Source of the DNA: a virus
UHGV virus genome: UHGV-1381044
Strand: one strand, 5' to 3'
Length of the DNA: 44,017 nt
Shown: one piece after another, positions 4,666-37,145 of the stretch
How positions within the stretch are numbered: the stretch's first letter is position 1
Layout: each line of letters starts with the position of its first letter
Program-made: the position numbers and the translations under genes
Notes under the pieces: model-generated
Told to the model about the DNA's origin: nothing
The model's input: only the letters and a program-made list of their open reading frames with translations
The model's database searches: none

Positions 4666-4678
4666 GTGATATTATCAC
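4666..4678. promoter_or_regulatory. Perfect palindrome GTGATA-T-TATCAC overlapping the predicted int promoter (TATAAT at 4692-4697). TATCAC/GTGATA half-sites also occur at 957-962, 4612-4617 and 4697-4702.
   Basis: Read directly from the sequence. Confidence 0.45.
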
Positions 4679-4782
4679 GAACCTACACCCGTATAATATC
4701 ACATTTCCAAGCAGTCACGCAAGATAAAATAAAAAAAATCTGGTGGCTGTATTTTTTATACCCAAAAAAGGAGTGTGCAACT

Positions 4783-6024
4783 ATGGCAAAAGCAAAAAAA
4801 TTACCTTCCGGATCATGGCGCGTACTGGTGTTTGACCACTACGAGCCTGTCTTAAATCCAGACGGAACACCCGTCATGCAAAACGGAAAACCGAAGCAAA
4901 AAAGAATCTACCAGTCCTTTACAGATGATGACCCATCAATTAAAGGGCGCAAACGGGTCGAATTGGCAGCTGCACAATACATGGCAGAGAAAGATTCACG
5001 TGAAGCGGAAAGGCGCAACCAAGAGGCGAATATGACGCTTAGAGGGGCGGCAAAAAAATATATAGATCTGTGCAGAACACTGAAAAGGTCTCCATCCACT
5101 ATAGAAGACTATGAGTGCATCATGCGGAACGGGTTCCAGGATCTTTTTAACATGCGCCTGTGTGACATATCAGAAGAGCTTCTGCAAAATGCCATAGCCA
5201 AAGAAGCGCAGCGGCCTGTCAACGGGAAGCCAGGCAAGACCCTTACAGCAAAGCGGCTGAAAAATGAGTGGGGGTTTATATCCTCTGTGCTCCACAAGTA
5301 CACAGACATCCGCACAGACAACTTGCAGCTACCTACACCAACACAAAGAATGGTTGACCTTCCAGATGCAAAAACGGTTATGGATATAGTCCGCGGCACC
5401 GAAATGGAGCTGCCGGTACTGCTTGCAATGTGGCTGTCGTTCACAGCCTCAGAAATCCGCGGCCTTACAAAGTCCAAATCCATTAACGGCGATTACATAA
5501 CGATAAAAGAGACGGTCGTAACCGTAAATGGAAAAGCTGTAAGAAAAGAAACAGCGAAAAACAACACGCGAAAACGCAAACACAAAATACCGGCTTATAT
5601 AAAAGGTCTGATTGACAAGGTTCCCGGAGATGTACTGGTGCCGATGACTGACGTTGCACTGCACCACCGCTGGAAACGCTTGCAAAAAATCCACGGTATA
5701 AAGGACCCTATCACTTTTCACGATCTGCGGCACCTCAATGCCTCTGTTATGGCCCTGCTGCAAATACCAGACAAATACGCCCAGGAGCGCGGCGGCTGGA
5801 AGTCGGATGCCGTTATGAAAAAAGTCTACATGCAGACATTTTCAGCTGAGCGGCAAAAGGTTGATGATAAAATTGACAGCTACTTTGAGAGTATCGTAGG
5901 AACCGAAAAAAGCGAAAAAGAATCCATAAAAGAAGTTGTGAACCGGCTAAAAAAGGAAGATCCGGAGGGATGGAAAAAAGCTGTTTTGGAAGCTATGCAA
6001 CACGAAATGCAACACGCGCAATAA
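4783..6024 (+). CDS. int: Tyrosine site-specific integrase (phage integrase family), 413 aa. The ORF track begins it at GTG 4666.
   Basis: RBS aaaggag lies 9 nt before ATG 4783. The C-terminal catalytic region HDLRHL...GGW...KKVYMQ (R-H-R-Y type) is present, and an attP-like region lies immediately downstream. Confidence 0.9.
   Translation: MAKAKKLPSGSWRVLVFDHYEPVLNPDGTPVMQNGKPKQKRIYQSFTDDDPSIKGRKRVELAAAQYMAEKDSREAERRNQEANMTLRGAAKKYIDLCRTLKRSPSTIEDYECIMRNGFQDLFNMRLCDISEELLQNAIAKEAQRPVNGKPGKTLTAKRLKNEWGFISSVLHKYTDIRTDNLQLPTPTQRMVDLPDAKTVMDIVRGTEMELPVLLAMWLSFTASEIRGLTKSKSINGDYITIKETVVTVNGKAVRKETAKNNTRKRKHKIPAYIKGLIDKVPGDVLVPMTDVALHHRWKRLQKIHGIKDPITFHDLRHLNASVMALLQIPDKYAQERGGWKSDAVMKKVYMQTFSAERQKVDDKIDSYFESIVGTEKSEKESIKEVVNRLKKEDPEGWKKAVLEAMQHEMQHAQ
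5993..6020. repeat. 28-bp direct repeat, copy 1: CTATGCAACACGAAATGCAACACGCGCA. It contains ATGCAACACG twice. Candidate Int arm-type sites.
   Basis: Read directly from the sequence. An identical copy lies at 6198-6225. Confidence 0.8.
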
Positions 6025-15764: not shown

Positions 15765-16277
15765 TTACTTACCTAAAATTTCAAAATGAGGGATAACGGT
15801 ATACGGACCACCTACACTGGTTATCTTGTAAACATTGTCGCGGTTGCTGTTCATGTACTGGTAAAAACCATTGCGGTAGTCACCCTCAGTAACCATGCCG
15901 CCAGTCCATTCACCCTGCCAGAAAAAATCCTCTGGCCCGAAGGTGATGCTGTCCGGAAGTTCATCATTGACCTGCGCCGCCCATGCTTTCGGAGTCATCC
16001 ACGGCATCGCTGCACCGTCTGACCGCTGCACCATCACCTTGTCTCCGTCTGGGGCGTAAGCAATATGCAGCGCGGCATTGTCGGTACTGTCTGGGCCATA
16101 CTTTTTCAGTATTGCGCCGTGGTCGGTTATCAGGTCAACTCCGGATAAAACATGAGGATACCAGTACGCATCTCCTGTTGTGGCTGATTCGTAATAATTG
16201 AAAAGTGTTATAATTTTGCTATAGATATATCTCACCTCGCATTTACGGGAGTTGAAACTGCGTCCACATCGCTCCAA
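15765..16277 (-). CDS. Minor capsid / head-tail adaptor protein. The start is uncertain because the ORF overlaps the HNH gene by 46 nt.
   Basis: ORF containing the motif ITFGPEDFFWQGEW. Confidence 0.45.
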   Translation of the reverse strand: MERCGRSFNSRKCEVRYIYSKIITLFNYYESATTGDAYWYPHVLSGVDLITDHGAILKKYGPDSTDNAALHIAYAPDGDKVMVQRSDGAAMPWMTPKAWAAQVNDELPDSITFGPEDFFWQGEWTGGMVTEGDYRNGFYQYMNSNRDNVYKITSVGGPYTVIPHFEILGK

Positions 16278-16858
16278 CCACGATATCTTCTCTTGGTTAT
16301 AGTGTTATAGGAAATCCCGGTTATTTCACTCCATTCTGTTAATGTATGTGTTTCCCCATTTACAGTAACGTAAACATTGCCTCTTTTATTGTTGGCTTGC
16401 TGTTTCAAAGTTGCCCATCTACAATTTTCAGGACAATAATTTCCATCCACGTTTACTCTATCTATAGTAAGATTTTCAGCATATCCATTTCTTAATGCCC
16501 ATTCCTTAAAATCAAGGAATGACTTTTCCCATTCTTCGCAAACAGAAATGCCCCTGCCACCATAGTTTTTATAAGATGGCTCTCCAATATAGGAACAGCG
16601 TCTACGCATATCTACCCATATAGTGTATAAGCGTGTGTTTCTATCTCCATGAATTTTCTTAGCTTCCGACACTCTATCTTTTTGATAACAGCCGCAACTA
16701 AGTGTATTTTTGCGAATCAAATTATTTGAAGCTACAATTACTTCGTTTCCACAATCACATTTACAAAGCCACTGAGATTGCCCCGTTTTATTAACTTTAT
16801 CAATGGCTATAAGTCTTCCGAATCTTTGATTTGTTAAATTTCTTGTTGGTCTTGGCAT
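16232..16858 (-). CDS. Free-standing HNH homing endonuclease (AT-rich) inserted between head genes.
   Basis: It has the Cys cluster LCKCDCGNE...SCGC, the HNH/AP2-like region NLTIDRVNVDGNYCPENCRWATLKQQANN, and low GC. It is paralogous to the N-terminus of the 31412 gene. Confidence 0.75.
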   Translation of the reverse strand: MPRPTRNLTNQRFGRLIAIDKVNKTGQSQWLCKCDCGNEVIVASNNLIRKNTLSCGCYQKDRVSEAKKIHGDRNTRLYTIWVDMRRRCSYIGEPSYKNYGGRGISVCEEWEKSFLDFKEWALRNGYAENLTIDRVNVDGNYCPENCRWATLKQQANNKRGNVYVTVNGETHTLTEWSEITGISYNTITKRRYRGWSDVDAVSTPVNAR

Positions 16859-16919: not shown

Positions 16920-17189
16920 TTATTCTTTCTGCGTTGTCTGCTTAATAACCTGATTCACGCCAGTAGCCGACAATCCGTTAAACATGCCGACCGCAACCGC
17001 TGTGATATAATCCGTTGCCGGAAAATCCGGGATAACTCCCATTCCGACCGCTCCGAGAATTCCACCAATAACCGCCATGATTACCGGAATCCATTCATCA
17101 GGGATTTTTTTTGATGCTTTGCAACCCATTCCTACAATGTAGCAGATCATAACGATTGCTATACATGAGCCTAATGTTGAAATGTCCAT
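16920..17189 (-). CDS. Small membrane protein of 89 aa, holin-like. The ORF track extends it to 17246.
   Basis: RBS GGTGGA precedes ATG 17189. It has two or three hydrophobic helices with a charged KASKKIPDEW linker. Confidence 0.45.
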   Translation of the reverse strand: MDISTLGSCIAIVMICYIVGMGCKASKKIPDEWIPVIMAVIGGILGAVGMGVIPDFPATDYITAVAVGMFNGLSATGVNQVIKQTTQKE

Positions 17190-17199
17190 TCTTTCCACC

Positions 17200-17403
17200 T
17201 CAATTTCTTGCAATAGAAGCATTTGCCCACATGACGGATTCTTCAAGCTTTGTCATGGCAAGAGATTTCTCTCTACTATTCGGGCAAATACCATCAATCA
17301 GATACGCCAGTTCTTTTCCTTTTGCTCTGACTTCTTCATATTTTTCTGCCTGCCCGTCTTTCGGGCTATGGTACATAAAGTTGTTCTCAATCTGATTATT
17401 CAT
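17200..17403 (-). CDS. Small hypothetical protein of 67 aa.
   Basis: RBS GGAGTG precedes ATG 17403. Confidence 0.4.
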   Translation of the reverse strand: MNNQIENNFMYHSPKDGQAEKYEEVRAKGKELAYLIDGICPNSREKSLAMTKLEESVMWANASIARN

Positions 17404-17915: not shown

Positions 17916-19082
17916 TTACTGTGCGGTTACAGTCGTATGTCCTGCGTTCAGCGCCTTATATGTGCTGTCGCACTCAACTACAGTGATAACCTGTCCGCTG
18001 GCCGCTGTGATATCGCTCTTGCCGTCCCACGCGCTCCAGTTTTTCACATTCTGACCATACTCTACAGTGGTCTCAGAAGATGCCACTTTGTACTTATAGA
18101 CGTTACCAGCGTTGCCCTTTTCCGGATTAACAGTAATCTTTGTGGTACCGCTGGATGATCCAGCTGTAGACTGTACAGTCAGATCGCCAAGAGTCTGAGA
18201 TGATCCAAATGTAATCACAGAAATAGCATCCAGATACTCAGCAAACAGCACCATACCCATGATTGCGAATGCCTCAGATACAGCAGTGCTATAGTTGCCC
18301 TGAGTATGGAAGCCAATCAAATTGGTTTCGCCGGACACTGTATAGGAGAGCCCAGCACGTGCAAAGTCTGAATCGCTCGGATCAACATAGTAAAGAACAA
18401 TGTTGTCTACCGGTGTAGCGATTACCTTGCCACGCGGGATCTCGCTGTCGGACAGCAGGAACACAGTATTAAATCCCATAAAATCTTTCATATACTGGAA
18501 TCCGAACTGGTTCTGAATAGTGATATTTGCAGCGCCAAGATACTCATATATATCAAGGATGTTTACAAAGCCTGCAATACCATTCGGAATGGAACGATGC
18601 ATGTTTTTGAATTTATCCTCAACGCGGCCTTTTGCCATAGCAAGAGCCATCTGGAAAGTGTTCTCGGTAGAGGTAAGGGTACCGGTCTTAAGATAAGTGT
18701 AAAATCTTCCGGTTACATCCGTCTGGAGCTGGAAGAGGAACTCTTCGTCTGTCATCTCTACAGCCACATCGTAGCCATAAGTCTTAATCGACTCGATAGA
18801 TACAGCCTTTGCGTACTTCTCCACATCCATTTCAGCATACTCTTTTTCTTTTACCTCGAATTTGGAGTACGGAATTTCCTCTCCCTCTGCGACCTTACCG
18901 CTCTGTAAAGTTCCGGTTGCATATTTGGATTTCAGAGTTGATCCCGGCTCTTTTTTTATCATTCTCAGCACACCAAGAATTTCGGATAAGTGCTCCCAGT
19001 TGCGTTCAAATCTGGTTACAAAATCTACCTCTCTCGCGCGTACCTGAATGTTTTCTGTTTTTATAAGATTTGCTTTTGCCAT
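17916..19082 (-). CDS. Major capsid protein. The ORF track begins it at TTG 19124; ATG 19082 (MAKANLIK...) is preferred.
   Basis: About 390 aa, following the scaffold gene. The C-terminal half is Ser/Thr-rich and Ig-like. Confidence 0.65.
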   Translation of the reverse strand: MAKANLIKTENIQVRAREVDFVTRFERNWEHLSEILGVLRMIKKEPGSTLKSKYATGTLQSGKVAEGEEIPYSKFEVKEKEYAEMDVEKYAKAVSIESIKTYGYDVAVEMTDEEFLFQLQTDVTGRFYTYLKTGTLTSTENTFQMALAMAKGRVEDKFKNMHRSIPNGIAGFVNILDIYEYLGAANITIQNQFGFQYMKDFMGFNTVFLLSDSEIPRGKVIATPVDNIVLYYVDPSDSDFARAGLSYTVSGETNLIGFHTQGNYSTAVSEAFAIMGMVLFAEYLDAISVITFGSSQTLGDLTVQSTAGSSSGTTKITVNPEKGNAGNVYKYKVASSETTVEYGQNVKNWSAWDGKSDITAASGQVITVVECDSTYKALNAGHTTVTAQ

Positions 19083-19143
19083 AAAAGTTAAGCCCTTTCT
19101 GCCCGTAATTTGGGCGCCAGTCAAATCACTGGATTAACAACGA

Positions 19144-19855: not shown

Positions 19856-19929
19856 TGGACCGCCAGGGACTTGAACCCCGGACCATCCGGTTATGAGCCG
19901 GACGCTCTGGCCAACTGAGCTAGCGGTCC
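19856..19929 (-). tRNA. tRNA-Met(CAU): tRNA with anticodon CAU (Met elongator, or Ile2 if lysidinylated). 74 nt, CCA not encoded.
   Basis: The RC folds as GGACCGC-TA-GCTC-AGTTGGCCA-GAGC-G-TCCGG-CTCATAA-CCGGA-TGGTC-CGGGG-TTCAAGT-CCCTG-GCGGTCC-A. G1-C72 is paired, so it is not an initiator. Confidence 0.85.
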
Positions 19930-20256
19930 TAAAATGCCTGGCATGATTACATACCAGGCATTTACAAGGGGAAAAGAAAAACTCTGCTTATAGCAGCAGA
20001 ATCCTCGCTGCGGTCGTAAGCCGCATTAACAGCCTATCAGCTACGAGGTGAAAGGAGGAAATTCAAGGCCAGTCAAAGCTCTTGAATTTTGATCTGGCAA
20101 GCGCACGCCGGAAATTTCATCCGCTTTTCAACCTCCAGGAATGACCTGTTTATATTAAGGACGTGCGCGGGAGGTGTGTGAGAAAACCATGAAAAGTAAC
20201 CAATCCTCTTCACATCTACATTCTACCATTTATCTATAAGTACCTTGTCCACACAT

Positions 20257-20799
20257 CTACAGCATATCTCTAAGTTTATCCACATAGCGCTTCACAAGAT
20301 CGCGTTCTTCGCGGCATTCTGCGTCCTTTGACATATCACCGATTTCTGCCGTAAGCCCATCCAAGTGTTCCTCTAATGCGGCCAGCATTTTACGCTTACA
20401 GTCCTCTGATTTGCCGGATCGATAGCTCTGCTTTTGCGTCATGTAATCATCATAAGCATCTCGACCATCGCTCCGGCTGTAATGTCCACGCACATAATGC
20501 TCACCGCGGCGCATATAAGACGAACCGCGGTCATAATCTGGCATTCGGCCATCAGAAGCGCTATAACGCCCCATGTTATCGCGTCCGCGGCGCTCGCTGT
20601 AGTCACCTACACGCATCTGTTCCAAGACGGTCATATAATACTCGCCCTTTTTATCCCAATACTCTGTGTTTTTAATGTCTTTATACATATCGATCAGCTT
20701 AAAAGCCGTGTCCAAATTGCCGGATGTGAGGCCTTTTTCAGCAATGTTAGATATCTCATCTTCAATACGTGCACATAAATCTTTAATATCTCTCATCAT
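20257..20799 (-). CDS. Hypothetical protein of 180 aa with an Arg/Gly/Tyr/Asp-rich low-complexity centre.
   Basis: ORF. It is the last gene of the late cargo island. Confidence 0.5.
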   Translation of the reverse strand: MMRDIKDLCARIEDEISNIAEKGLTSGNLDTAFKLIDMYKDIKNTEYWDKKGEYYMTVLEQMRVGDYSERRGRDNMGRYSASDGRMPDYDRGSSYMRRGEHYVRGHYSRSDGRDAYDDYMTQKQSYRSGKSEDCKRKMLAALEEHLDGLTAEIGDMSKDAECREERDLVKRYVDKLRDML

Positions 20800-20808
20800 C
20801 CCACCTCC

Positions 20809-21231
20809 TTATGCTACCCGTGTTACCACAAGATTTGCATTTGCCACGGTGATAGCCTGGGTACTGGTATTCTCTACCGCAACATTAAAGCAGCATCCGC
20901 GCGGCACATCAATAAAGATTCCGGCAGACACATTATTAAACGCTTCCAAAGCTGTAGGAGTGGAGATCATCCGAGAAGATAAGACAGGTTCTCCGCCGAT
21001 TGCAATAGCAAGAGAAATTTCTCCCGCGGTTCCTCCGGTCGGCACTGCAATATTTGCAGAAAAGTCCACAAAATAGCGGGCCTTGCACTGATTAGTAATT
21101 CCTCTGAGGGTAACAATGCCGCTGCCTTCCCGGTGCTGCACGCATGCGGTTCCTTTTACAGCGGTGTTGGTATACACCACGTTTCCGTTCGCTGCCACTT
21201 CCTGAGCGGCAACAGCTACATATTCAGCCAT
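20809..21231 (-). CDS. Hypothetical beta-rich protein of 140 aa, possibly a TNF/BclA-C-terminal-like jelly-roll. The ORF track extends it to 21315.
   Basis: RBS AGGAG lies 7 nt before ATG 21231. It has alternating hydrophobic/polar beta-like segments. Confidence 0.45.
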   Translation of the reverse strand: MAEYVAVAAQEVAANGNVVYTNTAVKGTACVQHREGSGIVTLRGITNQCKARYFVDFSANIAVPTGGTAGEISLAIAIGGEPVLSSRMISTPTALEAFNNVSAGIFIDVPRGCCFNVAVENTSTQAITVANANLVVTRVA

Positions 21232-21368
21232 ATTGTTTTCTCCTTTTTCATATCGCAAAAAGGCAGGTCTAAGCCTGCCGATTTGCGTAATACCGGCATT
21301 GCGCCGAACATCCAATCATATTGCCGATGTCAGGAATATGGTTGGAAGATACAGATATGATGTTGTTG

Positions 21369-22142
21369 TCAGCAGTTACAGCCCGTATTGCAGCCGTAAT
21401 ATGTGTTCGGGTTCGGCACCTGGTATGCCGGAATCGGTGCCGGATTAATCGCATTAATAAGCTGCTGGGTCTGTGCTGCCATAGCGGTAGTAAGTAATGC
21501 ACTCTGACGATCCTGAGATGCAGCACGTCTGAGATCATTGTTTTCAGCCTGGAGACTGGAAATCTTCTCGTTGCACAGGTAATCCAGAATAGCTCTGGTT
21601 CCGGCATTCTGGCTGTCAATAATGTCTCTGGTGTTGCTGTTCATGGTATTCTGGAGCGCACAGGTGTTCTGTGCCATGTTGTAGTTTACGCCCTGGATAG
21701 CTTCCCGGGTCTCACAGCAACACTGAGCAAGCTGCGCCTGGAGTGCGTTGGTGTTCTGCATGTTGGCTACAGTATCGGCATTAATAGCCTGCTGGATTCC
21801 AAAGCCGGTCTGCATGATATTGGTATTGATTCCGTTAAAACCGGTAAGCATACCGTTGTTCACTGCGTAGAATCCATCACAGAGACCGTTATTGATTCCA
21901 TCAAGTTTGCTGATTACGGCAGAATTATCGAATCCTCTCTGAATATCCGCCTGAGTAGCTGCTGTGGCTACATATCCGCCGCCGTTTCCATTATTGCCCC
22001 AGCCGTTGTTTCCCCATCCACAGAATGCGAAAATGAATAAAACAATAATCCACCAGCTACCATCTCCACCAAACATGCCGTCATTATTTCTACTGTTACC
22101 AGTAGCTGCCGCAATATCGGCTAAGCTATAATTTCCATCCAT
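21369..22142 (-). CDS. Gly/Asn/Gln-rich membrane-anchored protein of 257 aa with a Cys-rich C-terminus.
   Basis: It has a TM helix SWWIIVLFIFAFCGW flanked by GG...GNNGWGNNGNGGG, resembling the YjcZ-type N-terminus. It also has CCC and YYGCNTGCNC motifs. Confidence 0.5.
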   Translation of the reverse strand: MDGNYSLADIAAATGNSRNNDGMFGGDGSWWIIVLFIFAFCGWGNNGWGNNGNGGGYVATAATQADIQRGFDNSAVISKLDGINNGLCDGFYAVNNGMLTGFNGINTNIMQTGFGIQQAINADTVANMQNTNALQAQLAQCCCETREAIQGVNYNMAQNTCALQNTMNSNTRDIIDSQNAGTRAILDYLCNEKISSLQAENNDLRRAASQDRQSALLTTAMAAQTQQLINAINPAPIPAYQVPNPNTYYGCNTGCNC

Positions 22143-22191
22143 TTTGATATCTCCTTTAATTTTTATTTACATTCCTGGCCAGGATAATGTA

Positions 22192-22407
22192 CTACTTCAT
22201 TCCACGCAGCATGCTCTGGAACTGCTGCGCCATCTGCTGCACCTGATTAAGTTGTGCCTGTGATATCCGTCCAGATTGCAGCATCTTCTGTACTTCTGCT
22301 TTAGGGTCCCCTTTAAAGTTTTGTTTAAACTGCATAAATTGCTGCATCATTTGCATAGGGCCGTTGCCCTGCGGCCTGCCAAGCATCTGAAAAAGCGGGT
22401 TACTCAT
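22192..22407 (-). CDS. Small Gln/Met-rich protein of 71 aa. The ORF track extends it to 22470.
   Basis: RBS AAGGAGG lies 8 nt before ATG 22407. Confidence 0.45.
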   Translation of the reverse strand: MSNPLFQMLGRPQGNGPMQMMQQFMQFKQNFKGDPKAEVQKMLQSGRISQAQLNQVQQMAQQFQSMLRGMK

Positions 22408-22885
22408 TTGCTGTACCTCCTTTTGCTCTGCGGTTTTCTGTTTTGGAAGAGGCTCCACCAGGCTCCACACTTGTGGAAAATGAGTTGAGCCTATTTAAAA
22501 TTTCGTTATATTTATTAAAAAGATCTTGGTACTCTTCTCTGGTTACATAAATGTCAGCCGTAACAGTTTCTTGCCGTTTCTGCGGCATTTTGCTGTTGAT
22601 CTCATGGTACTCAAAAATGCGAAGCGGCTGAGGCATGCCAGATACGTCCGTAGATTTGATATAAAATCGCTCAGCTTCACTGTCCATCAGCAGCACACTT
22701 GATCCCGGTGCTACAAGATAGGACTTAGCGCCTGTCTCGCCCTGTACCCATAAAATACCCTGATTATTTGCTGGCGCTGGTGTTGCCAAAGGTTGTGGCG
22801 TGGGCTGATATTGGTTCATTTGTGCAATTCTGTCCTGGTATGCCTGATATGGCTGATACATGGGGGCATTTGGATATATTGCCAT
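22400..22885 (-). CDS. Hypothetical protein with a Pro/Gln/Tyr-rich N-terminus. The ORF track extends it to 22891.
   Basis: RBS GGAGGG lies 8 nt before ATG 22885. Confidence 0.5.
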   Translation of the reverse strand: MAIYPNAPMYQPYQAYQDRIAQMNQYQPTPQPLATPAPANNQGILWVQGETGAKSYLVAPGSSVLLMDSEAERFYIKSTDVSGMPQPLRIFEYHEINSKMPQKRQETVTADIYVTREEYQDLFNKYNEILNRLNSFSTSVEPGGASSKTENRRAKGGTANE

Positions 22886-23006
22886 GTTCAATTCCCTCCA
22901 AAAACTTTAAAATGTCACGGTAGTCGGTTACTATAGGTATCTCTATTTCGTCTTCCATACCTGTATTTTTGCAAAAAAAATAAGTCTCTGACAGTTCGTC
23001 AAAGAC

Positions 23007-23213
23007 TTAATAAAGTAGCACACGTGCTATTTTTGTGTTTACCCGGCGGCTGATCCGCTTTGCAGTGGATAAGCTCACATTCATATTTTCTGCGCAGATC
23101 TCCATTGTCACGCCTGCGGCTCGGTATTCAAATAAAGCTCTTTCCTCTGGTGTAAAATTCGCAAGTTGCCGGAAGCGGTTCAACTCCGGTACTGTAAAAT
23201 CATACACTTTCAA
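23007..23213 (-). CDS. Sigma-70 region-4-like HTH protein of 68 aa. Candidate late-gene activator.
   Basis: The motif FTPEERALFEYRAAGVTMEICAENMNVSLSTAKRISRRV resembles ECF sigma region 4. Confidence 0.5.
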   Translation of the reverse strand: MKVYDFTVPELNRFRQLANFTPEERALFEYRAAGVTMEICAENMNVSLSTAKRISRRVNTKIARVLLY

Positions 23214-23224
23214 GATGAGATCTA

Positions 23225-23566
23225 TTACCCCTCACTTTCTATCGGCTCATATGGTAGAGCCAAACACCTGTTATAAAGATCTTCGCCTGTTCCATTGCCT
23301 CCAAGCGTCTTGTATGGCCGAAACATATACTCAAGATTGTCTCTGTCTTCCAATGTACAGTACTTACGCTTTAAGTAAAACGTACACGCCTGATAGAGCC
23401 GATCATGGAGGAGTGCCAGAACTCCCGCATTAATAGCATTTGTTCTCGCGCGTTCCGTATTCAGCTGTTTAGACAGTTTATGATATGCTCCTGAAAATAC
23501 TACTGATATAAGGCCAAGCAGCCATGATACCCAGTGTGCTGTTATGTACTGTATAATCATTTCCAT
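23225..23566 (-). CDS. Small membrane protein of 113 aa with an N-terminal TM helix. The ORF track extends it to 23698.
   Basis: RBS AAGGAG lies 6 nt before ATG 23566. Confidence 0.5.
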   Translation of the reverse strand: MEMIIQYITAHWVSWLLGLISVVFSGAYHKLSKQLNTERARTNAINAGVLALLHDRLYQACTFYLKRKYCTLEDRDNLEYMFRPYKTLGGNGTGEDLYNRCLALPYEPIESEG

Positions 23567-23576
23567 TGTATACTCC

Positions 23577-23972
23577 TTAGTTATGATTTTTCTCCCAGTA
23601 ATATATAGGAATTTCTCCTCCACTATCCCAGGTATCGTATATATGGCCGTCTTGCACACAAACAACATGGCCATCAATGCAAAGTATGTACGTCCCATGC
23701 TGATGCTCCGTGCAAAAGTCAGCTACTGTATAGATGCTTTGGGTATGATCGTCTATCAGATGCCGCCGATATCCCTTTTCTTTTAGATATGCACCCCATA
23801 CATAATTTGCACTGGGCATATCCGATAGCATGCAGGCCTTTACCATGATGCCAGAGAAAACCGTTTCCCAATCTTGTCCAGTCGCTTTGCAGATTGCTCT
23901 GATAACACAGTCACCTACACGCTTACCGGCTGGATTCGGGTTATAATACTCCCATTCAACAGCAGATTTCAT
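23577..23972 (-). CDS. Hypothetical Cys/His-rich protein of 131 aa.
   Basis: ORF. Confidence 0.45.
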   Translation of the reverse strand: MKSAVEWEYYNPNPAGKRVGDCVIRAICKATGQDWETVFSGIMVKACMLSDMPSANYVWGAYLKEKGYRRHLIDDHTQSIYTVADFCTEHQHGTYILCIDGHVVCVQDGHIYDTWDSGGEIPIYYWEKNHN

Positions 23973-26712: not shown

Positions 26713-27534
26713 CTACTCTACATACCATATTTCCATGCTTCCATTGTCCCGGCTGTGCCAACAAGCACCCTCCAGTACTCCCCCGTCAGTCTCATCCAGA
26801 TAGTACCAGTCCCCGGTGTTGCCCTCTGGGTCTACGTTGTGTCCGTCCCATCTGTGCCACCCGGTCAGCATATAGCCGTCTGCGCCAAACAGGTACCAGT
26901 GATGGTTGATAAGTTCCCAGCGGTTTTTTAAGGCTTTGCCGCCGGAGAAATACATATACTTGCCGTCAGATTTGCGCCAACCGTTTAAAATCGTTCCAAT
27001 TCCCGCGTTTTTGCCGTTTGCCAGATTTACCGCCACATGGTGCCCTTCCAGCAGCAGCACATCCCCCGGTAGCAAATATGAGTCCCCGTTGAGATACTCT
27101 TTATCCGTATATGCGTTAAATCCGGCTTTTACCAGTGCCGCCCGAAGGTTGCCAGTATAACAGTAGACGCTCACTCCTTGGAGCTTTTTGTCCTGCATCA
27201 GATATCCCACAGCCTTTACGATAGCGGCAACGCCGGAGCTACAGTCCGCTTCGCAGTCAATCGCAATCTTCGCCGGATCGTAGCCGGATGCTTTCAGCTG
27301 CTGCCAGAATGTATAACGATCTCCCTGGTCATATCCAACATGGTCGTTCTTTGCCGCTCTTTCCGCAAGATCAGCAATCTTTTTCCCTACCGTAGCGTTT
27401 GGGTGCCGGAGCATAACGCCCCAGGGGCGACTATACCACGGGATAACAGCCCACTCATCACCTTTCTGATCTCCTGCCTTGCCGCCGGAATACTTGCCGC
27501 GCTCATCATGCCCACAGTTACTTATCATCTCCAT
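26713..27534 (-). CDS. NlpC/P60-type peptidoglycan endopeptidase with C-terminal choline-binding-type cell-wall repeats.
   Basis: It has the catalytic Cys motif DCSSGV and the His motif PGDVLLLEGHHVAV. The C-terminal repeats include WYLFGADGYMLTGWH and GDWYYLDETDGG. Confidence 0.65.
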   Translation of the reverse strand: MEMISNCGHDERGKYSGGKAGDQKGDEWAVIPWYSRPWGVMLRHPNATVGKKIADLAERAAKNDHVGYDQGDRYTFWQQLKASGYDPAKIAIDCEADCSSGVAAIVKAVGYLMQDKKLQGVSVYCYTGNLRAALVKAGFNAYTDKEYLNGDSYLLPGDVLLLEGHHVAVNLANGKNAGIGTILNGWRKSDGKYMYFSGGKALKNRWELINHHWYLFGADGYMLTGWHRWDGHNVDPEGNTGDWYYLDETDGGVLEGACWHSRDNGSMEIWYVE

Positions 27535-32612: not shown

Positions 32613-33096
32613 TTTGTGTTCCTGCTACTAAAAACATATACAAATATGCATATGCTAGATGATTTGCTATAATCTCACGATTTATAGTTACTGTTTCAAC
32701 GTGTATGCTTTGGTGGTTAAAAGTAACACACTACTCACAAGTTCTTGTACACTCCACAGTCGTAAATTCCCGACTTAGCCATCGGTACACATCTGTAAAT
32801 TCATATATTTGATTAGATACAGATTTCACCTAAGTAGTTTTTCCTTTCTTAATATTTTATGTTTTGCTACTTGGTTTTCGTAGACTTCTACCATTGTCCA
32901 AACGTCACCATCAAGGTTCTATCCTATAATTAGCAAGGCTGTTCCAACTTGCACTGGTTACTTCTCGACGTTTCCGACTGCTTTGACGTTAGCACAAACG
33001 AATACTCTGGATTTTGAGTATATTTGAACCTATTTGTTCACATTTAATTGTATTTTTAGTTACTTATCTTTCCTCCTAAATCTTCGAATATTGTAT

Positions 33097-35981: not shown

Positions 35982-37019
35982 TTAAATCTGTACCATTTCT
36001 CGGACATTTCTTAACGTCTTCGGTGTAGACTGCGCATAATACATGCTTGTTACTGCCGGGCTTGCATGTCCAAGGATTTCCTGAATGATACCAATATCAA
36101 CCTTTCTGTTCTTCAAATTCATGCCAAGTGTTTTTCTCATTTTATGAGGATATACAGCGCTTTTCACCGCTGCCCGCGCTCCGATGTCCTTAATGATTTT
36201 TCGGAATCCGCTCACACTCATTTTCCCGTGAGGCGCTTTCGACTGCGGGAACATATACGGGCTGTTGTCTGTTCTGCTCTCCAAATATTCGTTGTAGTAA
36301 TGCCGCGCATCATCGTCCAGATATAACGTGCGGTATCTGCCGCCCTTTTCTCCTTTAATGAGGATATCTCCCGTTTCTGTGTTGATCTGGTCAATCCTGA
36401 TCTCTGCGATTTCTCCGACCCGCGCCCCGGTGCTGCGGAATACTTCAATGATTGCACGCTCTCTTTTAGTGCGGCATGCATCCCGCATCTGGATAATCTC
36501 CGACCGGCTAAAGTAATCAATAGGCTTTAGCGCAATCTTTTTCGCTTCTGTTGCTTCCACCGGATTTTCATCAATAAGTTTTGATTTTCGCATCCATGTG
36601 TAAAAAGCCGAAAGGAATCTGCGTTCGTTATTATATGTGCTGTCCTGCACCTTTTCGCTTTTTGTACCTGGGCGTTTCTCGTACTGTGCTATATACCATT
36701 CCACGTCAAATGTATCTACACTGTCCAACGACTTTCCTACCATATTAGATAACCTTTTTACAGATCGTATATACCCGTTGATTGTCGCAGGACTGAGCCC
36801 GCGCTTCTTGATCTTGAAAAGCTCCAGTAAATAGCGGTTTCTCTTTTCTATGTCGTTCTTCCACTCTGCTGGAAGGGATGTGATTTCCTGCACATTTACC
36901 TTTGTAAGCTCACTCGATACTACACTATCCAGGATAGCAAGTGTGTCCGAATCAGAAATGTAAATCGACATTGCAACAATAATGTTATCAACAATTCCTC
37001 TTTTGATATTCTGGCCCAT
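35982..37019 (-). CDS. Second tyrosine recombinase (XerC/D / phage-integrase family), 345 aa. The ORF track extends it to 37115.
   Basis: RBS GGGAGGA precedes ATG 37019. Catalytic residues are present in ...RVGEIAEIRIDQI...HKMRKT...GHASPAVTSMYYAQ. Confidence 0.8.
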   Translation of the reverse strand: MGQNIKRGIVDNIIVAMSIYISDSDTLAILDSVVSSELTKVNVQEITSLPAEWKNDIEKRNRYLLELFKIKKRGLSPATINGYIRSVKRLSNMVGKSLDSVDTFDVEWYIAQYEKRPGTKSEKVQDSTYNNERRFLSAFYTWMRKSKLIDENPVEATEAKKIALKPIDYFSRSEIIQMRDACRTKRERAIIEVFRSTGARVGEIAEIRIDQINTETGDILIKGEKGGRYRTLYLDDDARHYYNEYLESRTDNSPYMFPQSKAPHGKMSVSGFRKIIKDIGARAAVKSAVYPHKMRKTLGMNLKNRKVDIGIIQEILGHASPAVTSMYYAQSTPKTLRNVREMVQI

Positions 37020-37145
37020 AGTAATCCTCCCTCTTGCAGAATCTGCAAAGGTCTGATACAATGGACCTAAGCAGATCAGGTAAGTGGCGGTAACATCTTG
37101 GCGGGTGTCCACCACTTATTTTTTTGTGTCATTGTCTAACTCCCT

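Follow-up and report, generated by a model that had tools for sequence, protein, structure and literature searches.

What function could have brought five small genes with unusually composed products together between a regulatory gene and the head genes of a phage, and are these five genes a unit in their own right? The question is raised by the virus genome UHGV-1381044, a stretch of 44,017 nucleotides that is referred to here as the window, in which five open reading frames (ORFs), A to E, are flanked by a small helix-turn-helix (HTH) ORF on one side and by a tRNA-Met, the scaffold gene and the capsid gene on the other. A preliminary description, made from the sequence alone, had regarded them as a five-gene island of late cargo whose products resemble spore-coat, exosporium or capsid-decoration proteins. 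In this study, the locus was compared with those of annotated phages, species-representative genomes, IMG/VR and metagenome contigs (individual loci are given L numbers). The comparison gives good support to the view that an accessory cassette which is conserved and moves horizontally occupies positions 20257-23972 of the window, and that this cassette is carried by siphophages of gut and rumen Clostridia/Lachnospiraceae. As to its function, the explanation we prefer, tentatively and by an argument from anatomy and context, is that of an autonomous, HTH-controlled cassette which acts on the host envelope when the phage is released.

The genes of the cassette are arranged in the order p3754 (encoding a putative papain-like protein), a small membrane protein (p4105), HTH, A, B, C, D and E, and more than 25 loci were found to have A to E in this order, accompanied by the HTH, the papain-like gene or both. 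Since the p3754 gene and the HTH travel with A to E in other phages, the unit is larger than five genes; the earlier boundaries were therefore too narrow, and the unit reaches 23972 on the upstream side. The order A-B-C-D-E is kept in nearly all loci of sufficient length, even when A, B and E are beyond detection by BLAST: a Pro/Gln/Tyr-rich A-like protein, a Met/Gln/Asn-rich B-like protein of about 70 residues, C, a D-like protein and an Arg/Gly/Tyr/Asp-rich E-like protein follow one another. One exception is L015, in which C is followed by E and D is absent. At L002, L008, L019 and L020 the D position is occupied by another Cys-rich family of similar size that has no match to the Pfam family BclA_C. 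No description of the complete cassette was found in the libraries and literature searched; mobile accessory cassettes in phage hotspots are of a known kind, and for two of the parts relatives or analogues can be recognized.

Three kinds of genomic position were observed. The first is the slot between the minor capsid protein and the scaffold, as in the window, its 80 IMG/VR relatives, Dulem virus 35 and L013. In the second, the cassette closes the late operon and follows directly on endolysin/holin-type genes, as in Ceridwen, bajarodcaudo virus 5, L012, L014, L017, L021 and Dulem virus 33; in the last of these an integrase comes after the cassette. The third is beside an integrase/attP or at a prophage edge against host genes, as in Eubacterium ramulus (L003), Lachnospira intestinalis, L004, L116-118 and Dulem virus 39. 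The carriers thus include a phage that plaques on Butyrivibrio fibrisolvens and prophages of Lachnospira, E. ramulus and probably Blautia (wexlerae). At L003 6526-7415, in the prophage of E. ramulus, the edge of the cassette meets three tandem host tRNA genes and, on the opposite strand, a 128-amino-acid (aa) ORF of the Mn_catalase family; this junction may mark the attachment site.

Mobile genes have themselves entered the cassette. In L116-118 an AntA-domain gene is found between C and D, in another lineage an endonuclease gene separates B from C, in Ceridwen D and E are separated by an HNH-like gene, and a 76-aa ORF is inserted in the C-D spacer of Dulem virus 39. The window holds, beside its holin gene, a 208-aa ORF that is 42% identical to the HNH-like gene of Ceridwen (L107 7428-8222) and to genes of L009 and L010; its product is probably a homing endonuclease, and the gene would move from one of these phages to another. 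At L016 (2603-3163), an AgrB-like (accessory gene regulator B) gene is located directly upstream of the A-like gene.

These positions bear directly on the idea that the products are accessory proteins of the virion, with D as a trimeric knob or decoration protein and with A, B and E contributing cement or parts of fibres to the head or tail. Such a role would fit the head slot of the window lineage, and A, B, D, E and the papain-like peptidase lack signal peptides, as virion proteins do. However, DO134P1 (Dorea) and Chenonceau (Flavonifractor), two cultured phages, assemble homologous heads without the cassette; the capsid protein of DO134P1 is 52% identical to that of the window, and in both phages other small genes fill the head slot. 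The slot is thus variable, in agreement with the earlier reading of these genes as cargo. Conversely, bajarodcaudo virus 5 possesses the cassette together with portal, scaffold and capsid genes that have no similarity to those of the window, and in this phage, Ceridwen, and Dulem viruses 33 and 39 the cassette is far from the head genes. It also includes a membrane protein and a transcription factor. As the preliminary description had remarked, none of A to E looks like a standard head gene, and profile searches of Pfam, PHROG and NCBIfam matched none of them to a head, decoration, fibre or cement family. Since the cassette is found at several positions (after lysis genes, beside integrases and at prophage edges as well as in the head slot) and beside unrelated head genes, capsid decoration is disfavoured, and we regard a role in the virion as improbable.

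Table 1. Features of the window (positions in nucleotides from the first letter of the 44,017-nucleotide stretch).
Feature	Position	Strand	Description
p3754	23577-23972	minus	131 aa, putative papain-like protein (Cys-His-Asp); phrog_3754, E-value 8e-37
p4105	23225-23566	minus	small membrane protein, 113 aa from MEMIIQ...; phrog_4105, E-value 2e-32
HTH	23007-23213	minus	68 aa, TTG start; stand-alone GerE/LuxR/sigma-region-4-type candidate
Terminator-like hairpin	22981-23009	minus	13-bp stem and T8, directly after the HTH stop codon
A	22400-22885	minus	161 aa; ATG start, GGAGGG ribosome-binding site; phrog_21718, E-value 3e-37
B	22192-22407	minus	71 aa; start codon overlaps the stop of A; phrog_22984, E-value 7e-26
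C	21369-22142	minus	257 aa; phrog_16490, E-value 3e-59
Conserved non-coding box	21287-21311	minus	ATGT-(small hairpin)-TATTAC, in the C-D spacer
Terminator-like hairpin	21262-21279	minus	GC-rich with T-run, just upstream of the D ribosome-binding site, about 8 nt past the box
D	20809-21231	minus	140 aa; phrog_20016, E-value 6e-57
E	20257-20799	minus	180 aa; phrog_28802, E-value 6e-63
RAGATH-21 RNA motif	20100-20169	minus	Rfam 79.8 bits (gathering score 70.3); in the gap of about 330 nt from E to tRNA-Met
9-bp hairpin	~19933-19962	minus	precedes tRNA-Met
tRNA-Met (CAT)	19856-19929	minus	ARAGORN and Rfam; downstream boundary marker
Major capsid protein	17916-19124	minus	
67-aa ORF	~17200-17403	minus	just past the head-tail adaptor gene
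Holin	16920-17246	minus	phrog_1129, E-value 3e-22
208-aa ORF	16232-16858	minus	probable homing endonuclease
ELLD endolysin-like protein	26713-27534	minus	choline-binding repeats; E-value 1e-71
Tyrosine-recombinase-family ORF	4666-6024	plus	Phage_integrase, E-value 5e-9
Tyrosine-recombinase-family ORF	35982-37115	minus	Phage_integrase, E-value 9e-31
FuFi-1 RNA motif	2049-2208	plus	136.5 bits, above the Rfam gathering score
RAGATH-18 RNA motif	32688-32760	minus	74.3 bits, above the Rfam gathering score

All five ORFs are present where the preliminary description had placed them (Table 1), and each is preceded by a Shine-Dalgarno sequence. Upstream of them lie a Phage_min_cap2 gene (E-value 1e-73), the 131-aa ORF, the small membrane protein and the HTH, and the scaffold gene downstream matches PF06810 (E-value 1e-21). 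Each of A to E matched one PHROG family of unknown function (E-values 7e-26 to 6e-63), and the exact proteins of the window occur in 113-330 public contigs each for A to D and in 18 for E, all of them called 'hypothetical'; window proteins are also found on contigs of up to 164 kb. Compared with the 80 relatives, the ratio of nonsynonymous to synonymous substitution rates (dN/dS) is 0.02-0.10 for A to D, with 0.10 for A and 0.05 for B, these values being constrained for most genes by saturated dS (>2); E yielded no estimate. It appears from these sequence comparisons that A to D are under strong purifying selection.

Searches of Pfam, NCBIfam and PADLOC gave nothing usable for A to E. Among the PADLOC defence models A alone was matched, weakly (AriAB, E-value 0.022, 11 bits), with nothing for the other proteins, and sequence and profile searches of the PDB with A, C, D, E and p3754 returned nothing significant. 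The compositions noted earlier are correct, i.e. Gln and Met in B, Asn and Cys in C, Asp, Arg and Tyr in E, and Pro, Gln and Tyr in the N-terminus of A. The 'low complexity' of A to E is, however, modest, the lowest entropy of a 40-residue stretch having z = -0.4 to -2.0 vs other phage proteins. The content of guanine plus cytosine is 46-49% in the island, which is within the range of the window (36-52%), and therefore base composition is uninformative on a foreign origin. One metagenome variant differs from the window only in that B was called at 33 aa (L114 3717-3818), and this may be a natural B-defective copy.

Of all proteins in the region, C shows the highest conservation. Its identity to the 80 syntenic relatives (L025-L104) is 96% in protein and 87.5% in DNA, compared with protein identities of 83% for E, 82% for B, 77% for D and 56% for A; the corresponding values are 78% for the capsid protein, 76% for the scaffold, 73% for p3754, 59% for the minor capsid protein and 54% for the HTH. 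That the conservation of C exceeds that of the capsid protein points to a host target which is itself conserved in Lachnospiraceae. The dN/dS of C is 0.02, with a dS of 0.95 vs >2 in its neighbours; this low dS may reflect either a recent exchange of C between lineages or an extra constraint on its codons. Clustering of the C family at 50% identity gives at least 2,087 clusters and clustering at 90% about 8,000, some of them with more than 1,000 member sequences. Among the 150 best hits almost all are shorter than about 300 aa, many being fragments, and there is no sign of a fused domain.

C contains 14% Asn and 10 Cys, and its best 17-residue hydrophobic window is at residues 28-44, GSWWIIVLFIFAFCGWG. 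From the N-terminus, it consists of an acidic tail, a transmembrane (TM) helix (~29-45), a Gly/Asn linker, a helix of approximately 160 residues, a Pro-rich hinge and a Cys/Gly tail, and it is predicted to be a single-pass membrane protein. The AlphaFold model, based on an alignment of 78 sequences, has a mean predicted local distance difference test score (pLDDT) of 74 and shows a short TM helix and one continuous helix at residues 74-232, with a pLDDT of 88-97 in 10-residue blocks over residues 121-240; the Gly/Asn linkers and the Cys/Gly tail are disordered. Hydrophobicity averaged over the family has a period of 3.65 and autocorrelation peaks at 11 and 22. Therefore, the helix appears to be built on 11-residue (hendecad) repeats, and a heptad coiled coil, which had also been considered, is ruled out by the same period and 11-residue autocorrelation. 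The weak PDB matches of C (ATP synthase b, influenza HA2 and apolipophorin, E-values 0.03-1.7) were set aside as reflecting composition and coiled-coil character. The triple cysteine at residues 141-143 and C255 are nearly invariant. The preliminary description had assigned the triple cysteine to the C-terminus, but it is located in the middle of the protein, and the resemblance of the N-terminal part to YjcZ-type sporulation peptides found no counterpart in NCBIfam, where C had no match at an E-value of 0.1 or less; with 257 aa and its large helical domain, C also departs from such a peptide.

The second protein that can be interpreted structurally is D, which the preliminary description had compared with the TNF-like C-terminal domain of BclA. 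The D of the window has no BclA_C match in Pfam at an E-value of 1 or less. Its homologues, however, match BclA_C (PF18573) over nearly their full length: the D of L021 with 35.8 bits (E-value 8.3e-9), that of Dulem virus 35 (L001), which is 45% identical to the D of the window, with 30.3 bits (E-value 4.4e-7), and two further ones with 18.7 and 16.2 bits, all below the gathering score of 38 bits though their E-values are significant. The AlphaFold model of D is all-beta with eight strands and has low confidence (pLDDT 54.5, predicted template modelling score 0.52). Among full-length Foldseek targets of similar size, this model matched mostly jelly rolls of the C1q/TNF/BclA/ExsF type (TM-scores 0.45-0.62, E-values 1e-4 to 1e-3), such as Cbln1 C1q, EDA-A1, 4-1BBL, BclA, ExsFA/BxpB, the Sf6 knob and viral collagen-like/C1q proteins; the remaining matches were other beta-sandwich domains of larger proteins. 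The comparison thus appears to hold at the level of family and fold, where D is modelled as a stand-alone BclA_C/C1q-TNF-like jelly roll, and not for a Pfam match of the window's own protein. The D family has 4,066 clusters at 90% identity, and the listed matches are 78-98% identical. No collagen-like G-X-Y repeats are present in the sequence of D (140 aa, starting MAEYVAV...). The low-confidence model of D resembles BclA and ExsFA/BxpB in its eight-stranded jelly roll, but D stands alone, is phage-borne in hosts that are not known to sporulate, and has neither the collagen-like stalk nor the N-terminal exosporium-targeting region.

The fold of D can be read in favour of two of the explanations already mentioned. 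Viral fibres typically end in TNF/C1q-like knobs as their distal domains, and the Foldseek matches of D include tail-needle knobs, minor tail proteins and fibre proteins of the collagen-like type, as a virion protein might show; D is nevertheless highly conserved, unlike receptor-binding knobs. The preliminary description, for its part, had favoured mimicry of the spore surface, by which coat-like proteins made during host sporulation would become part of the spore or of its surface. The family of D is linked to the C-terminal domain of BclA, and the exosporium proteins BclA and ExsFA/BxpB are among the matches of its model; the HTH is of the size and class of GerE, and compositions rich in Tyr, Cys, Gly and Gln recall those of coat proteins. 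However, BclA_C/C1q folds are common in viruses unrelated to spores, D lacks the collagen-like region, and the likeness of the set to spore proteins comes down to the fold of D and to composition. Neither a YjcZ match in NCBIfam nor a Spore_GerQ match in Pfam was obtained. To our knowledge, the classical descriptions of Butyrivibrio fibrisolvens, Lachnospira, Eubacterium ramulus and Blautia are those of non-spore-formers. Because of these hosts, and because the resemblances to YjcZ and GerQ fail the family tests, the spore-coat reading is weakened to the point that we consider it very improbable. The literature searched on BclA-like capsid decoration, RAGATH-21 and phage-encoded exosporium proteins contained nothing relevant.

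The other three proteins of the original set are characterized mainly by their composition. The first 43 residues of A contain ~19% Pro, 19% Gln and 12% Tyr, and are followed by a beta-rich core of ~50 residues, a predicted coiled-coil helix and a basic tail; A can be aligned with a second sequence family of the same architecture (f6), in which V47, K77 and G83 are invariant. B has 24% Gln and 14% Met, i.e. 6.3 and 5.1 times as much as the rest of the phage, and its position in other loci is held by a Met/Asn/Gln-rich protein of 66-90 aa. A likeness of A to GerQ and of B to STI1, suggested by composition, was dropped as several members gave it no Pfam support. E contains 13% Asp, 11% Arg and 8% Tyr. 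Both of its terminal parts are helical and carry conserved Cys, and its middle part is rich in Arg, Gly, Tyr and Asp. Its motifs RRDSMGRYS and HYVRGHYSR are kept in divergent family members, and elsewhere the E position is occupied by different families of like composition, one of which is DUF7841.

The three upstream genes complete the cassette. In ten diverse members of the p3754 family D21-C22, R25, H102, D113 and D116 are invariant and stand in the order found in papain, and a homologue is located just before A or just after E in about 14 loci. No Pfam or PDB sequence match was obtained for p3754, and one member of its 90% cluster was named 'endopeptidase' by its source. On these residues p3754 is taken as a putative papain-like protein and as part of the extended cassette. 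For p4105, with a hydrophobic window score of 1.85, the longest ORF reaches 23698, and public gene calls use the 113-aa form.

The HTH matched Sigma70_r4 of Pfam with an E-value of 0.0047 (16.9 bits; cut-off 24.1), GerE with 0.11, and the PHROG sigma factor family phrog_1190 with 4e-6. With the profile of its family, the C-terminal domain of NarL (1.5e-4) and GerE (1fse, 4.7e-3) were found, as were DosR and SdiA. The HTH can thus be placed, by sequence, at the superfamily level only. It resembles regulators of the GerE/LuxR/FixJ type in being the size of their domain alone, and differs in falling under the curated cut-off of every family and in having no link to sporulation. Homologues are situated directly upstream of A to E in at least nine loci (L001, L002, L003, L005, L010, L011, L013, L014 and Ceridwen), and the HTH is likely to be the regulator of the cassette.

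Terminator-like hairpins may divide the cassette into smaller parts. At the 3' end of the HTH, relatives have a different hairpin with a T-run, followed by a TGCAAAAATATAAT-like box that resembles a -10 element. In the C-D spacer, the conserved box is present in the window lineage, in Dulem virus 35 and in loci of the L003, L009, L013 and L014 types, and degenerate in L108; more distant loci have only a small hairpin followed by an AT-rich box. The pattern occurs once in the window vs ~0.8 times expected by chance, so that its uniqueness alone is not significant. The box is, however, kept even where the flanking proteins of two loci share only ~45% identity, and its stem covaries. An equivalent of the terminator-like hairpin that follows it is found, with differing stems, in 15 of 15 loci with a C-D spacer of 90-210 nt, and RNAalifold detected compensatory changes in 10 of 14 pairs in a nine-sequence alignment of both spacer hairpins. 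The spacer element (21253-21311) has no Rfam match, and a conserved peptide in the spacer was ruled out, as the reading frame differs between the window and L001. A sigma-70 scan showed no excess of promoter-like sites (13 vs 11.8 expected). These hairpins could act as terminators or attenuators, possibly with internal promoters, and would then split the cassette into HTH, A-B-C and D-E. Late expression of the cassette, as assumed in the preliminary description, is plausible from the orientation of the genes.

The RAGATH-21 motif behind E was considered as a part of the cassette and rejected, since among the loci scanned it occurs only with head-slot copies: it is also found after E in Dulem virus 35 (L001 10502-10578), whereas the remaining eight lack it. 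In the window the motif is covered by a spurious ORF (20073-20213). With FuFi-1 and RAGATH-18, three orphan RNA motifs are present in this one 44-kb phage.

How, then, could such a cassette work? In the explanation preferred here, the HTH would switch the cassette on independently of its genomic position, and C, as a helical effector tethered to the membrane, would enter the cytoplasmic membrane by its N-terminal helix, from which a helix ~24 nm long would lead to the proline hinge and the Cys-rich tip. D would form a trimer of the BclA_C/TNF type, a fold whose usual use is that of a binding knob, and would serve as the binding module; the conserved cysteines of D and the Cys tip of C suggest that the two may be coupled. 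The part of low-complexity partners would fall to A, B and E, while the papain-like protein, as a processing or wall-active enzyme, may process a component of the cassette or a substrate in the envelope. At the end of infection the complex would act on the envelope and aid release, in analogy to LysZ.

LysZ is encoded by the last gene of the lysis cassettes that corynephages and mycobacteriophages carry, and is needed for lysis in addition to holin and endolysin, in that it overcomes membrane-anchored lipoglycans; its architecture is that of a disordered N-terminus, a TM helix, a long helix, a linker rich in Pro and a helix at the C-terminus, and its authors proposed that phages of Firmicutes may meet a similar barrier in lipoteichoic acids (bioRxiv 10.1101/2025.06.24.661397). 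Four of these five architectural features are predicted in C, which ends in a disordered Cys/Gly tail instead of a C-terminal helix. In at least seven lineages the C gene is situated, like that of LysZ, just downstream of endolysin/holin genes, although it is outside a lysis cassette in the head slot of the window and beside the integrase in L116-118. A role in release is further favoured by the position of p4105, just upstream of the HTH, which is occupied in several other loci by XhlA-like or TM-plus-coiled-coil proteins, and by Ceridwen, which keeps the full cassette and for which only lytic growth was seen.

The lysis genes of the window itself are scattered. Its holin gene lies among the head-tail connector genes and the gene of the ELLD endolysin-like protein between the portal and minor capsid genes, so that the two do not form a joint cassette after the tail genes.

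A comparison can also be made with the i-spanin Rz and with XhlA of PBSX, which are membrane-anchored helical lysis accessories encoded beside holin and endolysin genes; an XhlA-like gene adjoins the cassette in Dulem virus 35. Unlike these systems, the cassette has no lipoprotein (o-spanin) partner, and the periodicity of C is 11 and not 7. The hosts of the cassette have, as far as we know, a single membrane.

Several observations weigh against a role in release. The C-family profile did not recognize any of Corndog gp69-75, the best score being -0.4 bits to gp75, which was assigned as the probable LysZ on architectural grounds. C exceeds Corndog gp75 by ~110 residues, has a Gly/Asn linker and 11-residue repeats, and is always accompanied by partner genes, and Firmicutes hosts lack lipomannan and lipoarabinomannan (LM/LAM). 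Since A, B, D, E and the peptidase have no signal peptides, these partners cannot meet C before lysis if its helix is outside the membrane. The N-tail of C is acidic (Lys+Arg 0.5 vs 1.35 past the TM helix), and this charge bias hints weakly at an N-out/C-in topology. Lysis proteins usually evolve fast, unlike C with its conservation. The model of D is of low confidence, the D of the window has no BclA_C match and those of its relatives score below the cut-off, and no known function explains the roles of A, B and E. Lastly, the cassette of one lineage (L116-118) lies beside the integrase and far from lysis genes, which fits lysogenic conversion equally well.

By lysogenic conversion is meant here that the cassette is a moron expressed from the prophage under its own HTH, and that it alters the envelope of the lysogen, for example by superinfection exclusion through the membrane-anchored C or by a new surface structure. 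Locations at an attP, an integrase or a prophage edge (L003, L004, L116-118, and Dulem viruses 33 and 39), related phages without the cassette, its own regulator, the bracketing terminator-like hairpins with the -10-like box past the upstream one, and strong purifying selection, which suggests a conserved host target, would all be accounted for. The window, moreover, encodes two proteins of the tyrosine-recombinase family, and its phage is therefore probably temperate. In Ceridwen, however, which its authors judged to be virulent, the cassette is intact; it is co-oriented with late genes wherever it adjoins them, and usable PADLOC matches were lacking. We also know of no superinfection-exclusion genes that resemble a set of five to eight genes with low-complexity products. 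As in morons (accessory units of the Hendrix type) and in lysogenic-conversion cassettes, the cassette varies between lineages, is dispensable, and is inserted beside attP or between conserved late genes, with terminator-like hairpins on its borders and possibly a promoter of its own; it differs in being much larger (seven to eight genes), in having its own regulator, and in being far more widespread and conserved. Overall, lysogenic conversion seems unlikely, though clearly less so than a virion or spore role.

A role in release remains the preferred, if tentative, explanation, and a more specific proposal can be made with less confidence. It is conceivable, but doubtful, that the cassette encodes a multi-protein envelope machine of Firmicute phages, a more elaborate counterpart of LysZ, self-regulated and mobile, in which the ~24-nm helix of C would be tethered to the membrane, D would be the BclA/TNF-type trimer and A, B and E prion-like or low-complexity components, together with a cysteine peptidase; its target might be a conserved polymer of the envelope, for example lipoteichoic acid, which would be breached or remodelled either for release or in lysogenic conversion.

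Two further observations were made on the structural genes of the window. The 67-aa ORF past the head-tail adaptor gene has a counterpart in the near-identical L110 and L114 with a precomputed Pfam match to Acb2_Tad1_hairpin, an anti-CBASS/Thoeris sponge family, and is thus a possible anti-defence gene within the structural operon. The major capsid protein has, in near-identical contigs, a precomputed Pfam match to S-l_SbsC_C, an S-layer C-terminal domain, which suggests that it bears an extra surface domain.

The cassette is very common, and every copy of it is annotated as 'hypothetical'. Since Ceridwen, which forms a cultured pair with B. fibrisolvens DSM 3071, carries the whole cassette, the question of its function is directly testable. 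Lachnospiraceae are a dominant family of human gut bacteria, and it is in them that the conserved host target would be found. Should the cassette serve release or act on the envelope, the LysZ finding would reach to Firmicutes, and a mechanical function of their membrane-anchored polymers could come to light; should it act by lysogenic conversion, gut commensals would have in it a trait that is widespread and borne by phages.

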